A DNA stretch of 25,677 nt from a virus (IMGVR_UViG_3300001476_000004); one strand, 5' to 3'. Shown: positions 1-3,138, counted from the first letter of the stretch. Program-made: numbers and translations. The notes: generated by a model not told the origin, from the letters alone.

Positions 1-124
1 TTAAAATGGAAAATCTAATTTCGTCACGAGACACAATTACAGAATCGTCTTTGTTAATTTTATTTTTAAGAAAAGTTGACTTTCCTGACCCTGGGCAGCC
101 CGCCATAATATATAAATCTGCCAT
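1..124 (-). CDS. P-loop polynucleotide kinase-like protein, N-terminal 41 aa only (gene continues off the left edge)
   Basis: Reverse complement of 1..124 reads MADLYIMAGCPGSGKSTFLKNKINKDDSVIVSRDEIRFSIL. The Walker-A motif GCPGSGKST matches the kinase domain of T4 polynucleotide kinase (IGCPGSGKST). The ATG overlaps the TAA of the upstream gene (TAATG at 122..126). Confidence 0.5.
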   Translation of the reverse strand, partial: MADLYIMAGCPGSGKSTFLKNKINKDDSVIVSRDEIRFSIL

Positions 125-405
125 TATATAATACCTTCTTTCTTTAATTTCCCTCTAAATATTCGATATGGTTCTTTTCTATTTCCTTCACTATCAAAAT
201 TATGATACTTCATTTCAAGTAGAAAATCTTCATAATTATAATCGCTATAAAAAGGACGAATTTCAACATGATTTCTTTCAGCCCCGCAATAAATGCAATA
301 TAACTTTTTTAAGTGTCCTGGTTCTTTACTTCGCTTATTTCGAGGAATTGGGATTCCTCTCTTTTGACAGCATGTGCAATACATTTCAGAAATTTCAGTT
401 GCCAA
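124..405 (-). CDS. Small Cys-rich zinc-ribbon-like protein (93 aa)
   Basis: Intact ORF. GGAGGA RBS at 409..414 on the minus strand. CxCC...CxxC spacing (CTCC...CIYCG). TAA stop. Confidence 0.55.
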   Translation of the reverse strand: MATEISEMYCTCCQKRGIPIPRNKRSKEPGHLKKLYCIYCGAERNHVEIRPFYSDYNYEDFLLEMKYHNFDSEGNRKEPYRIFRGKLKKEGII

Positions 406-421
406 TACATTCCTCCTTTAA

Positions 422-652
422 TTACTTTTCAATTACATTGATAATAATTTTAGGCTGACCGTCCCTATCCATACGAGTAACATAAATAGGCTCATCTGTA
501 TCTTCTGGATTTATTCTTCCAATTTTATAATCTACAACAGTCCATGGAATTTCAAAAACACATCCTTCAAAAAGAGGCTCTTTATCATCCATGCCCCAAA
601 TTATTACATCACTTAGACCATCTACATATTTTATCCAATTTTTAAGTTTCAT
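422..652 (-). CDS. Hypothetical protein (76 aa)
   Basis: Intact ORF with an AAGGAG RBS just upstream on the minus strand (rc of 660..670). TAA stop. Confidence 0.55.
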   Translation of the reverse strand: MKLKNWIKYVDGLSDVIIWGMDDKEPLFEGCVFEIPWTVVDYKIGRINPEDTDEPIYVTRMDRDGQPKIIINVIEK

Positions 653-703
653 AAATATATATCTCCTTTCTTTTTTATTATAATAATATTATAATAAAAA
701 TTT

Positions 704-739
704 ATAAAAAAAACAAGTGGAGAATACTGTTCTCCACTT
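704..739 (-). terminator. Rho-independent terminator downstream of the RNA ligase gene (minus strand)
   Basis: 10-bp inverted repeat aagtggagaa (715..724) / ttctccactt (730..739) with a 5-nt loop. An A-run at 706..713 gives a U-run on the minus-strand transcript. Confidence 0.5.
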
Positions 740-748
740 ATAAAAATA

Positions 749-1993
749 TTACTGATGATATTTAAGAAGAAATTCGTTAGATACCGCCTTAAATGACTTA
801 CTTCCATCTTTTGAGCGAAAAACAATTCCTTCTCTCATTTCGTTGTCGCAAACAGATTCTCCAGTTGCGTAATTAAGTAATTCTTCAACAGAATCAGGAA
901 GAATAAAATTGTCGTCAAGAATAGGAACACAGGGAATCCCCATATTTTTTTCAAGGAGATTATTCATTTCTCTTGTGCCCCAGCGTCCGTCTTTTGATGT
1001 TATAAAATTAAAAGCCATAAAAGCATGTTCTGGAGCATGATAGTCTCTTTTCTGAATGCCAGGCCCATATGTTTCACCCTGAATAGTAATCCATTCGCAA
1101 TCTGCAAAATGATTATATAAAAGGTCTTTCATTTTATTGAAAATGTCATATTTTTCTGCCATTTCAATGTAGACATTTGTATCATAAAAACAGGTTTTGT
1201 CAGGTTTATCAAATACTACGTTACGAGAACATACATAAAATTCATCTTTATGAGGCCATTTACCTCGTTTTAAAGTAAAGGTAGTTGATGTGCCATCAAT
1301 TTTTTCAGTTGCAATCCATGGTTCTTTGTCTTTCAGAATCCAGGGCATATTCTGCACTCTCTCTTCATCTGTTTTTACAACCCACGCAGGCCAGTTTCGA
1401 GAATCTTTCTTTTTTCCAAAGAATACGAAAAGAAATTTCTTACCCCAAGTTCGTTTCATAAGCCATTTAAATGGCTGATGAGAAAAAAGCTTTCCATGGC
1501 GCTGTGCCATTTTCTTATACTTATCAACAGAATTTGCTTTACGAGTATTATCTTCTGTAACATAATAAGTCACACCAAGCTGCTTAGTAAGGAAACGAGA
1601 TTCTCCTTCTACAGAATGTTCATTTGCTTCTTTATCTACAATTACAGGAGTTTTTTTATCTATACTTTCATTACTAATATACCACCCAAAATTTGCGGCA
1701 GACATAAGAAGTCCTTGGGAAATAAAATTTCCTTTTCCACCAAAAGTATAACGCTGAGTCTTTACTTTATATTTTTTCTTTTCCATAAAAGAGAAAGCTG
1801 AATTAGATGGATCAAGATATGAATCTATCTCAAAATAAATTGCGGGGTCTCCAGCTTTAAATTCATTTTTACGAACCATAACATGCCAACCACCAACAAT
1901 AGCACATTCACAATTATCAGACCCTGGAATTGGTTCAATCGCGTCAATTACTACAACATATGCTAATTGTCTAGTACCATTTTTATCTAACAT
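749..1993 (-). CDS. ATP-dependent RNA ligase family protein (414 aa)
   Basis: The nucleotidyltransferase motif I KxDG sits in the context ATEKIDGTSTTFTL. A ~200-aa N-terminal extension precedes the NTase domain, as in Rnl5/DraRnl-type and phage RNA ligases. AAGAGG RBS on the minus strand. TAA stop. Confidence 0.65.
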   Translation of the reverse strand: MLDKNGTRQLAYVVVIDAIEPIPGSDNCECAIVGGWHVMVRKNEFKAGDPAIYFEIDSYLDPSNSAFSFMEKKKYKVKTQRYTFGGKGNFISQGLLMSAANFGWYISNESIDKKTPVIVDKEANEHSVEGESRFLTKQLGVTYYVTEDNTRKANSVDKYKKMAQRHGKLFSHQPFKWLMKRTWGKKFLFVFFGKKKDSRNWPAWVVKTDEERVQNMPWILKDKEPWIATEKIDGTSTTFTLKRGKWPHKDEFYVCSRNVVFDKPDKTCFYDTNVYIEMAEKYDIFNKMKDLLYNHFADCEWITIQGETYGPGIQKRDYHAPEHAFMAFNFITSKDGRWGTREMNNLLEKNMGIPCVPILDDNFILPDSVEELLNYATGESVCDNEMREGIVFRSKDGSKSFKAVSNEFLLKYHQ

Positions 1994-2069
1994 TATTATA
2001 TTACCTCTTTTTTAATAATAAATTGACTATTTTCTAATAAATCATCTAAACATAGATTATTGATCTTTC

Positions 2070-2249
2070 TTATAAAACATTCTCATTATCATTCTTCCTT
2101 TCTTTTGTTAATTCATTAATGATATAATCCCAATTTTCAAGAAGATAAGGACACATATCATATTCATTTAAATTTTCATCATAAGCACATGCATTTTTCT
2201 CAAAAGCATTTCCATATGGGCATTTATGACTTCTTTTACAATGTTTCAT
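2070..2249 (-). CDS. Small Cys-rich protein (59 aa), putative Zn-binding
   Basis: Not in the ORF track because it is under 60 aa. Translation is MKHCKRSHKCPYGNAFEKNACAYDENLNEYDMCPYLLENWDYIINELTKERKNDNENVL. AAGGAG RBS 8 nt upstream on the minus strand. TAA stop. Confidence 0.4.
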   Translation of the reverse strand: MKHCKRSHKCPYGNAFEKNACAYDENLNEYDMCPYLLENWDYIINELTKERKNDNENVL

Positions 2250-2289
2250 GTCTTTATCTCCTTTCTTATATTATTATTATATCAAATTT

Positions 2290-3138
2290 TTATTTATAAA
2301 TCAAATCGAGATTATCAAGGTTAGTATTTTCATAGATTTTTATTAAAGAATCATATAAATTATAATGTTCACAAAAATATTTATATACATCAAGAAAACA
2401 ATCATTAAATAACATTAACATTTGTTTTCCTTGGTATTCTGGATATATCCGAAGAGAATGAAAATGCCCAAATGCCCATAATTTATAATCTAGATTATAT
2501 TCAATTTCACCAAGCCATTGCTCAGTTGTTTTATCAACAGTAGATTGATTTACAAAAGAAAGAAATAAATCAGTAGGTTCATAAATAATTGGACAGGTAT
2601 GAGACAACACTAAATTCCAGGTATCTGACTGTGCTAAAGCAACACCCGCCGCCATTTCTTCTTTAGTACACTGTTCTGTTGGAAACCATCCTAAATCATT
2701 TGCACACCGATAATATTTATCTACGCTATATGCGCCAGGTAAAACTAGCGTTTTTATAATATTACCCTGTGCTGTTGGAATTTCATATTTTGCGGGGGTA
2801 TCAAGTGCATATTTAATGTATGAAAAATCATTTTCTACATAAACTTGATTTCCCCAGAACTCTTCCATATGCCAAGCTTCAGGATTTTTCTCCATGCAGA
2901 TGCTAGGCCGCTCCTCATGATTTCCCCGTATTACGAAATAAGTAATATTATATTTACCAAGTTTTTTCTTTAATTTAATATCCCGATAATTAAAAAAGAA
3001 GTTTGCTCCAAAATCACCTAAAACAATAAGAACGTCTTCTTTCGTTAAAGGTTCTTGTTTTTCAATCATGTAATTATAAATATCTCGCGCTGGATGAAAA
3101 CTTCCATGTAAATCCGCAGTTATTAATATTTTACTCAT
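2290..3138 (-). CDS. Calcineurin-like metallophosphoesterase (282 aa)
   Basis: Canonical metallophosphatase motifs are present: ITADLHGS (DxH), VLGDFG (GD), IRGNHE (GNHE) and a later GHFH. The start overlaps the upstream gene by 8 nt. Confidence 0.8.
   Translation of the reverse strand: MSKILITADLHGSFHPARDIYNYMIEKQEPLTKEDVLIVLGDFGANFFFNYRDIKLKKKLGKYNITYFVIRGNHEERPSICMEKNPEAWHMEEFWGNQVYVENDFSYIKYALDTPAKYEIPTAQGNIIKTLVLPGAYSVDKYYRCANDLGWFPTEQCTKEEMAAGVALAQSDTWNLVLSHTCPIIYEPTDLFLSFVNQSTVDKTTEQWLGEIEYNLDYKLWAFGHFHSLRIYPEYQGKQMLMLFNDCFLDVYKYFCEHYNLYDSLIKIYENTNLDNLDLIYK

Follow-up and report, generated by a model that had tools for sequence, protein, structure and literature searches.

What would a large uncultured phage do with a polynucleotide kinase, an ATP-dependent RNA ligase and metallophosphoesterases (MPEs) encoded side by side? 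The question is raised by the left end of a 25,677-nucleotide stretch of viral DNA (IMGVR_UViG_3300001476_000004), referred to here at its full length as the window. An original prediction, made from the sequence, had described a split RNA-repair cassette in which a Pnk-like kinase, an RNA ligase and one MPE supply the activities of T4 Pnk and Rnl1 or of bacterial Pnkp/Hen1. The window is embedded exactly in a 128,258-bp ENA scaffold, SHIW14-1 scaffold_98 (ERZ28612952; contig position = window position + 47867), which, from the sample name, probably derives from a sheep-rumen metagenome. Contig positions 38.6-81.6 kb (43 kb) were examined around the cassette, and the 21-kb locus of this contig is designated L001. 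The predicted open reading frames (ORFs) were all recovered, on the minus strand, with the motifs GCPGSGKST, KIDG and DxH/GD/GNHE in place and with domain E-values far beyond chance. On balance we lean, slightly rather than firmly, towards the view that the phage uses the cassette to heal and seal broken ends of nucleic acid, most probably of RNA.

A stand-alone kinase of predicted Pnk type

The kinase gene (Pnk) begins at base 124 in a 1-nt TAATG overlap with the stop codon of the upstream gene, Zn93; its product starts MADLYIMAGCPGSGKST... and the gene leaves the window after 41 codons. This 41-residue fragment alone matches AAA_33 (5e-6) and PHROG 505 'polynucleotide kinase' (4e-9). Read from the contig, the complete protein has 164 amino acids and consists of a kinase domain only (L001:11870-12364), with PHROG 505 as its best family (4e-24) and AAA_33 at 1.5e-16. 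Matches in the PDB were to L-seryl-tRNA(Sec) kinase (PSTK, 1e-7), Pnkp1 (4xrp, 1e-5), the kinase domain of CthPnkp (4gp7, 4e-5), T4 Pnk (1ly1/1ltq, 6e-5 to 2e-4) and also KTI12. An alignment of 67 sequences, which included T4-type PseT (phage POP12), Sepunavirus Pnkp and a Pnk-HD protein, left G9, G12, G14, K15, S32, D34, R37, D75, T77, R84, N113 and R116 invariant. These residues make up the P-loop (K15), the S32-x-D34-x-x-R37 motif, the acceptor-binding D75-x-T77 and the lid arginine R116. The family match and the invariant catalytic residues agree with the original prediction and place the putative kinase in the T4 Pnk/bacterial Pnkp type.

Two other identities were considered and rejected. 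A deoxynucleoside or thymidylate kinase does not fit family matches that are to polynucleotide kinases. PSTK was matched in its kinase core only, with a TIGR03574 score of 48.9 bits vs a cutoff of 290.5, and is a protein of ~250-260 amino acids with a C-terminal tRNA-binding domain that the 164-residue Pnk lacks. Nor does the remainder of the gene, left of the window, hold the phosphatase domain for which the original prediction had suggested a check: there is no C-terminal HAD-type 3'-phosphatase domain, and a separate phosphoesterase gene, MPE2, follows directly.

A divergent Rnl5-family ligase

The ligase matches the Pfam families RNA_ligase (PF09414, 5.6e-22) and PHA02142 OB domain (PF21189, 7.6e-17, residues 11-78), and its motif I, TEKIDGT, places the lysine at residue 231. 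NgrRnl (5cot) aligns with it across the OB and adenylyltransferase domains (E 6.5e-29; ligase residues 6-117 with NgrRnl 3-117, the adenylyltransferase domain with NgrRnl 138-337), and the lysine nucleophile of NgrRnl aligns with K231. TIGR02306 'RNA_lig_DRB0094' matches in two stretches (1.8e-29) at 102.7 bits, below the equivalog cutoff of 151.15, a shortfall that we attribute to about 65-80 additional, partly conserved residues inserted between the two domains. Because PHROG 968 matches the protein end to end (1e-62), we describe it as a phage branch; on these comparisons the predicted ligase is a divergent member that still lies inside the Rnl5 family. Invariant across 76 sequences are K231, D233, G234, E307, F328-N329, E388-G389, R393 and K402. 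The matches to PF09414, NgrRnl and TIGR02306 uphold the call of an ATP-dependent RNA ligase, and DNA ligase and capping enzyme were rejected as identities on the same grounds. Identity to any record of the phage collection was at most 34%. Among cultured phages, PAK_P1 and Aeromonas Aes508 carry Rnl5-like ligases, with no Pnk or MPE annotated within 5 kb of the ligase; they therefore provide no independent support for the association described below.

The characterised Rnl5 members, DraRnl and NgrRnl, are Mn2+-dependent and seal duplex nicks in which the 3'-OH strand is RNA; DraRnl requires RNA solely on the 3'-OH side of the nick, and D. radiodurans that has lost it is more sensitive to ionising radiation and slower to reassemble its genome (PMC5397189). 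The physiological roles of Rnl5 were stated to be uncharted, and whether they lie in DNA repair, RNA repair or both was left undetermined by the same authors (PMC5397189). The ligase is thus an Rnl5 and not the equivalent of T4 Rnl1 proposed in the original prediction. Since Rnl5 enzymes seal duplex nicks and have an uncharted role, the equation with anticodon-loop repair is an inference.

These properties also suit a reading in which the module acts on DNA or RNA-DNA junctions during phage replication or repair. Pnk and MPE2 would tidy DNA ends bearing 5'-OH and 3'-phosphate, leaving Rnl5 to close nicks whose 3'-OH strand ends in ribonucleotides (remnants of primers, or breaks patched with ribonucleotides), a role already suggested for DraRnl. 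The 3'-OH-side RNA requirement and radiation phenotype of DraRnl speak for it, as does the company that the ligase keeps: its transcription unit also holds a homologue of pyrimidine-dimer glycosylase, and within 9 kb there are genes for RNase H, gyrase B/A and an NAD-dependent DNA ligase. T4 Pnkp, moreover, acts on DNA ends too. Duplex nick sealing and DNA-metabolism neighbours together make this a serious rival. Sequence gives no separation of DNA from RNA substrates; however, the phage encodes its own NAD-dependent DNA ligase for DNA nicks, and the triad of kinase, phosphoesterase and RNA ligase is what typifies the RNA repair systems that have been characterised to date (PMC4411300, PMC7824862). 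We regard action on DNA as unlikely, though well worth keeping in view.

Two calcineurin-like phosphoesterases

The calcineurin-type assignment of the phosphoesterase within the window, MPE1 (2290..3138), was borne out. It carries the motifs D9xH11, G41D42 and G72N73H74E75, and in the alignment the metal ligands D9, H11, G41-D42, G72-N73-H74, H180, G224-H225 and H227 are invariant. A search of the PDB found no sequence relative of MPE1. MPE1 homologues were also seen in unrelated phages, without a ligase or kinase in the vicinity.

MPE2 lies outside the window, beyond the view of the original prediction. It has 177 amino acids, starts 1 nt past the Pnk stop codon and matches Metallophos_2 and PHROG 547 (5e-45), with D9, H11, G53-D54, G79-N80-H81, H116, H135 and H137 as its invariant ligands. 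Its closest solved relative is Aquifex aq_1665 (1xm7, profile E 8.6e-21), to which no function is assigned, followed by the glycerophosphodiesterase GpdQ. Judged by their conserved residues, both proteins are predicted calcineurin-like MPEs with a full binuclear-metal ligand set. The structural relatives of the two include cyclic-nucleotide and glycerophosphodiester phosphodiesterases, for example Rv0805 and GpdQ. Profile comparison with the phage kinase-MPE-ligase Pnkp indicated that neither is of that type.

Conservation of the cassette across related loci

A scan of IMG/VR yielded 80 loci with ligase homologues (53-86% identity), many of them on contigs of 125-240 kb, and these loci were searched with the window proteins. 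Assemblies of bacteria and archaea, scanned with MPE2 as seed, gave a second set of 67 loci, mostly on phage-like contigs binned with rumen or gut Bacillota. Sixty-five IMG/VR loci had at least 4 kb of downstream sequence; Pnk and MPE2 were both present on the same strand within 4 kb of the ligase in 47 of these, and anywhere in the locus in 54. The gap between Pnk and MPE2 was below 300 nt in 47/63 loci. Pnk was found 6-9 kb upstream of the ligase in seven loci, six of which also had MPE2, adjoining Pnk every time. Zn93 stood immediately 5' of Pnk in 45 of the 66 Pnk-bearing IMG/VR loci. MPE1 occurred in just 15 of the 48 loci with at least 6 kb of sequence upstream of the ligase, and other gene orders place it right in front of Rnl5 (L098) or behind Pnk (L101). 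In the assembly scan Pnk lay immediately upstream of MPE2 in about 19/67 loci, with Rnl5 upstream as well in eight of those. From these counts, the core conserved over about 150 related loci is Rnl5, Zn93, Pnk and MPE2, and MPE1 is facultative. The original prediction had paired the kinase with MPE1; it is MPE2 that adjoins Pnk.

MPE2 is also joined to Pnk in a single polypeptide. P0407 (341 amino acids) consists of Pnk (residues 1-143) followed by an MPE2 homologue (residues 163-336; hhalign probability 100, E 9e-61). It came from an exhaustive search of representatives with Pnk, a word-indexed search having returned only close stand-alone relatives. The top match of the exhaustive search, P0378, is a protein of 5280 amino acids with 23 separate Pnk-like stretches, which could be either a genuine repeat protein or an artefact of concatenation or assembly. 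Two variant arrangements were also seen. At L100:4312-6585, on a 158-kb contig binned with a Candidatus Absconditabacterales metagenome-assembled genome, Rnl5, Pnk and MPE2 stand back to back without Zn93; in L126 Zn93 directly precedes MPE2 with no Pnk in between.

The arrangement could also reflect genes that share no pathway and are neighbours by descent, each acting separately. Nucleotides or the cyclic nucleotides of defence signalling, for example, might be what the phosphoesterases break down, and the substrate of the kinase might be a small molecule or, as for PSTK, an aminoacyl-tRNA. PSTK is indeed the best single PDB match of the kinase, KTI12 was matched too, Rv0805 and GpdQ are among the structural relatives of the MPEs, and the MPE2 family is mostly found without Pnk. 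It is difficult to reconcile this with a kinase that scores so far below the PSTK cutoff, lacks the C-terminal tRNA-binding domain and has PHROG 505 (Pnk) as by far its best family match, or with a Pnk and MPE2 whose coding regions abut, which relocate as a pair and which form one protein in P0407. We consider separate action distinctly unlikely.

A proposed heal-and-seal module

Family identities, conservation of catalytic residues, operon layout, synteny, the P0407 fusion and the freedom of the cassette from in-frame TAG argue for a heal-and-seal module. A host ribonuclease (RNase), deployed in abortive infection or as a toxin, would leave 2',3'-cyclic-phosphate or 3'-phosphate ends together with 5'-OH ends. 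MPE2 would strip the 3'-terminal phosphate, with MPE1 possibly serving as a second, optional phosphoesterase, and Pnk would phosphorylate the 5'-OH. Rnl5 would then seal the 3'-OH/5'-PO4 break through a lysyl-AMP on K231 and, by analogy with DraRnl and NgrRnl, would favour breaks held in duplex or structured RNA. Zn93, translationally coupled to Pnk, may be an RNA-binding or targeting subunit. What is inferred here is that the proteins have these enzymatic activities and act on RNA, how the two phosphoesterases share the work, what Zn93 does and that the setting is one of defence. Repair of anticodon loops is one plausible possibility within an RNA-repair function.

Several points weigh against this proposal. 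The activities of all the cassette enzymes are deduced from sequence. The Rnl5 enzymes characterised so far are duplex nick sealers, and the phenotype of DraRnl is one of recovery from DNA damage (PMC5397189). The neighbours of the cassette belong to DNA metabolism (Pyr_excise, RNase H, gyrase and NAD-dependent DNA ligase). The nearest solved relatives of MPE2 are a protein of unassigned function and a glycerophosphodiesterase, GpdQ. Most of the 1441 phage records that contain a member of the MPE2 family (PHROG 547) show no Pnk beside it, and about 45/67 MPE2 homologues in the assemblies, the more distant ones, have no Pnk nearby; end healing is therefore not an intrinsic property of the family. 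Common descent accounts for part of the synteny, since the related loci come from a single phage lineage. Finally, the P0407 fusion is known from one cluster representative, on a contig of 3.6 kb (reads SRR24653717), and an assembly error or a frameshift could have produced it.

The proposal bears on the acknowledged open question of what Rnl5 does. A phage Rnl5 is linked here with a 5'-kinase and a 3'-phosphoesterase, which gives a testable heal-and-seal hypothesis, and the linkage spans many uncultured rumen and gut phages and supplies MPE2, MPE1 and Zn93 as candidate proteins. If tRNA or rRNA is what the module shields from the RNases of the host, phages that change genetic code in mid-infection would gain an anti-defence function.

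Zn93 and the other small ORFs

The original prediction had described two Cys-rich Zn-ribbon proteins. For Zn93 the description is supported by an AlphaFold2 model (pLDDT 89.8), which shows a three-stranded zinc ribbon followed by two helices. For the second, c59 (2070..2249), the Cys-rich part stands and the Zn ribbon does not: its four conserved cysteines form no CxxC pair, and no family was matched. Zn93 has invariant C10, C13, C37 and C40 (CxxC...CxxC) and an invariant G30-H31-L32-K33. Its family is small, at 164 proteins, all close relatives, and tblastn of Zn93 against the phage collection gave no match.

In the PDB, the best Foldseek matches of the Zn93 model are chains of ribosomal protein bL33 from numerous bacteria, but these are weak (E 0.05-0.2; target-normalised TM 0.70-0.74) and cover only the N-terminal ~47 residues, and Pfam L33 (PF00471) matches just 3 of 34 Zn93 members, with E >= 0.05. 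Zn93 also shares a K-[KL]-Y-C-x-x-C...H-x-E pattern with the Zn-binding forms of bL33. This likeness of the modelled structure is, we stress, a lead and not a finding. An extension of the lead is that a bL33-like Zn93 targets the healing enzymes to ribosome-bound or structured RNA, with the module safeguarding the translation apparatus of code-switching phages, including the suppressor tRNA that their late genes require. We offer this as a long shot; if it is true, a phage Rnl5 would for the first time have a known physiological role, and RNA repair would gain a new accessory subunit.

Homologues of c59 are present in 10 of 82 loci, in close relatives only. The ORF p76, on which the original prediction was silent, has homologues in 5/82 loci and is lineage-specific. 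Neither c59 nor p76 had a Pfam, PHROG or NCBIfam match.

Recoding of TAG and expression of the cassette

The late genes of this phage are readable only with TAG as a sense codon. When TAG is read through, fragmented plus-strand ORFs merge into two long genes, a tape-measure gene of 2911 codons with 34 in-frame TAG (7135..15870) and a gene of 1615 codons with 15 (16229..21076); reading through TGA or TAA does not join them. From the gene for a major vault protein (MVP)-like protein through the holin gene, by comparison, there are no in-frame TAG codons and all stops are TAA. The cassette has no in-frame TAG and is therefore translatable before or without suppression, which, from sequence, is compatible with early expression. 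In the lysis cassette (L001:12975-15131), the glucosaminidase, amidase and peptidoglycan-binding lysin genes contain 2, 2 and 1 in-frame TAG, respectively, and the holin gene none; synthesis of the lysins, but not of the holin, would therefore need suppression.

ARAGORN, run on the window, L001 and L093, detected no tRNA gene in the 43 kb of contig examined, and hence no suppressor tRNA there. A tRNA with a CUA anticodon does occur near the ligase in two related loci, L059 and L080. Some relatives have arrays of 12 tRNAs 2-9 kb from the ligase (L059:477-5949 and L044:13400-17145), and the array of L059 includes the CUA tRNA. A crude ORF-length test on 44 related loci indicated TAG read-through in at least 21 and TGA read-through in five. 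Several cassette-bearing loci gave neither signal, in a test that cannot separate non-recoded loci from those in which only early genes were sampled.

It is in this setting that the purpose suggested by the original prediction is best weighed, namely that Pnk, MPE1 and the ligase carry out T4-like anticodon-loop repair to protect the suppressor tRNA needed by the TAG-recoded late genes. The read-through of late genes beside a TAG-free cassette fits this idea, as do the CUA-anticodon tRNA genes near the ligase in L059 and L080 and the recurrence of MPE1 beside the module in differing orders. MPE2, however, and not MPE1 with its 15 occurrences in 48 cassettes, is the constant partner of Pnk, and homologues of MPE1 are found in unrelated phages with no ligase or kinase nearby. 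Rnl5 is a nick sealer rather than an anticodon-loop ligase of the Rnl1 type (PMC5397189). The lack of tRNA genes in the 43 kb of contig around the cassette and, by the crude test, of a recoding signal in the available stretch of several cassette-bearing relatives also count against it. We rate dedicated protection of the suppressor tRNA as improbable.

Relation to known systems

Precedents for healing and sealing are T4 Pnkp with Rnl1, bacterial Pnkp/Hen1 and Pnkp1-Rnl-Hen1 (PMC4411300). The present kinase falls in the same P-loop clade as T4 Pnkp (PseT), with GCPGSGKST, RDxxR and the lid arginine all present, and in both cases a phage of virulent type encodes a kinase, a 3'-end phosphoesterase and an ATP-dependent RNA ligase. 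In T4, unlike here, the kinase carries a HAD phosphatase; the 164-residue protein stands alone and the phosphoesterase is predicted to be a binuclear MPE. The ligase, with its OB and nucleotidyltransferase (NTase) domains and presumed nick-sealing activity, likewise differs from Rnl1. In bacterial Pnkp (Clostridium thermocellum) the kinase precedes the MPE as a domain, as it does here as a gene, and in the Pnkp1-Rnl-Hen1 system of Capnocytophaga gingivalis the ligase is, as here, a separate polypeptide (PMC4411300). The equivalence to bacterial Pnkp/Hen1 drawn by the original prediction nevertheless fails: neither MPE is of the lambda-phosphatase type, the kinase, MPE and ligase are not in one polypeptide, and neither Hen1 nor any other methyltransferase was present among the called genes and Pfam matches of L001. 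DraRnl (D. radiodurans DR_B0094) and NgrRnl (Naegleria gruberi) share the two-domain architecture and motifs of the ligase and differ in lacking the extra residues between OB and NTase, which accompany its score below the TIGR02306 cutoff. DraRnl lies in a two-gene operon with a DEDDh-like protein (PMC5397189), whereas the ligase here is linked to putative end-healing enzymes.

A survey of jumbo phages pairs phage polynucleotide kinases and HAD, or less often calcineurin-like or HD, phosphatases with RNA ligases, and such gene sets were read as counter-defence against host tRNA cleavage (PMC7824862). Other versions in cultured phages are the Sepunavirus kinase-MPE-ligase fusion and, in Bacillus phage KLEB27-3, an RNA ligase with a Pnk-HD protein and an MPE. 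Burroughs and Aravind are said to have catalogued phage RNA-repair gene sets by comparative genomics in 2016. The combination of a stand-alone Pnk, a small MPE of aq_1665 type, an Rnl5, a conserved Zn-ribbon protein and an optional second MPE was found neither described nor in cultured phages. The literature on phAss-1-type recoded phages mentions no ligase or kinase, and no relationship to them was established. The biochemical logic is thus known and similar phage sets have been catalogued; what is new is this parts list in a TAG-recoded phage of ~128 kb, the way in which it is kept throughout a large lineage of uncultured phages (about 125-200 kb, many TAG-recoded), and the hint that it gives on Rnl5 function.

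Gene layout and neighbouring genes

All genes in window positions 1..6169 are on the minus strand; the features around the cassette are collected in Table 1. Farther left on the contig, Pnk is followed by MPE2, a terminator-like hairpin, the holin-endolysin cassette, RNase H, gyrase B/A and the NAD-dependent DNA ligase.

Table 1. Features of the cassette and its flanks, in window coordinates
Feature	Position	Strand	Remarks
Pnk, 5' end (41 codons)	1..124	-	ATG at 124; gene continues left of window
Zn93, 93-aa CxxC...CxxC zinc-ribbon ORF	124..405	-	Stop overlaps Pnk start
p76, 76-aa ORF, function unassigned	422..652	-	First gene after terminator; apparently heads Pnk transcription unit
Terminator-like hairpin and T-run	713..741 (L001 11253-11281)	-	12-bp stem, then TTTTTTTT
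Predicted Rnl5-family ATP-dependent RNA ligase, 414 aa	749..1993	-	PF21189 and PF09414
c59, 59-aa Cys-rich ORF	2070..2249	-	C4, C10, C21, C33
MPE1, 282-aa predicted binuclear metallophosphoesterase	2290..3138	-	Metallophos PF00149 4e-15
Pyrimidine-dimer glycosylase-like gene (T4 endonuclease V family)	3131..3556	-	Pyr_excise PF03013 8e-20; TIGR02328 1.5e-18
Strong palindromic terminator-like hairpin	3637..3667 (L001 8327-8357)	both	13-bp stem; T-run on either strand

Terminator-like hairpins follow the MVP-like gene, the ligase, MPE2 and the lysins, and the region scanned contained 17 such sites vs 4.4 +/- 2.4 in shuffled sequence. The hairpin after the MVP-like gene forms the upstream boundary of a unit headed by the Pyr_excise gene, which shares 8 nt with the start of MPE1. 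The one directly 3' of the ligase stop codon divides the ligase unit from the Pnk unit. The positions of the hairpins suggest three transcription units: Pyr_excise-MPE1-c59-ligase, p76-Zn93-Pnk-MPE2 and holin-lysins. A scan for sigma-70 promoters stayed at background (67 sites vs 56.7 +/- 8.1), an Rfam search of the whole window gave no match, and megablast of 1..6200 against 50,697 phage records gave none either.

Both the coding strand and the GC skew change over near 6200, where an AT-rich intergenic region (6170..6640, about 26% GC) separates divergent genes. Among the late genes beyond it, the plus-strand gene at 22829..23749 encodes a Gly/Asn-rich protein of 306 amino acids (298 from the ATG) with a Cys-rich C-terminal tail and no family match. 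On the near side, the minus-strand gene at 3677..6169 encodes the MVP-like protein, 830 amino acids long, with an MVP shoulder domain (PF11978, 6e-23) and no match to a PHROG or NCBIfam family. This protein is kept in 19 related loci at 40-96% identity.

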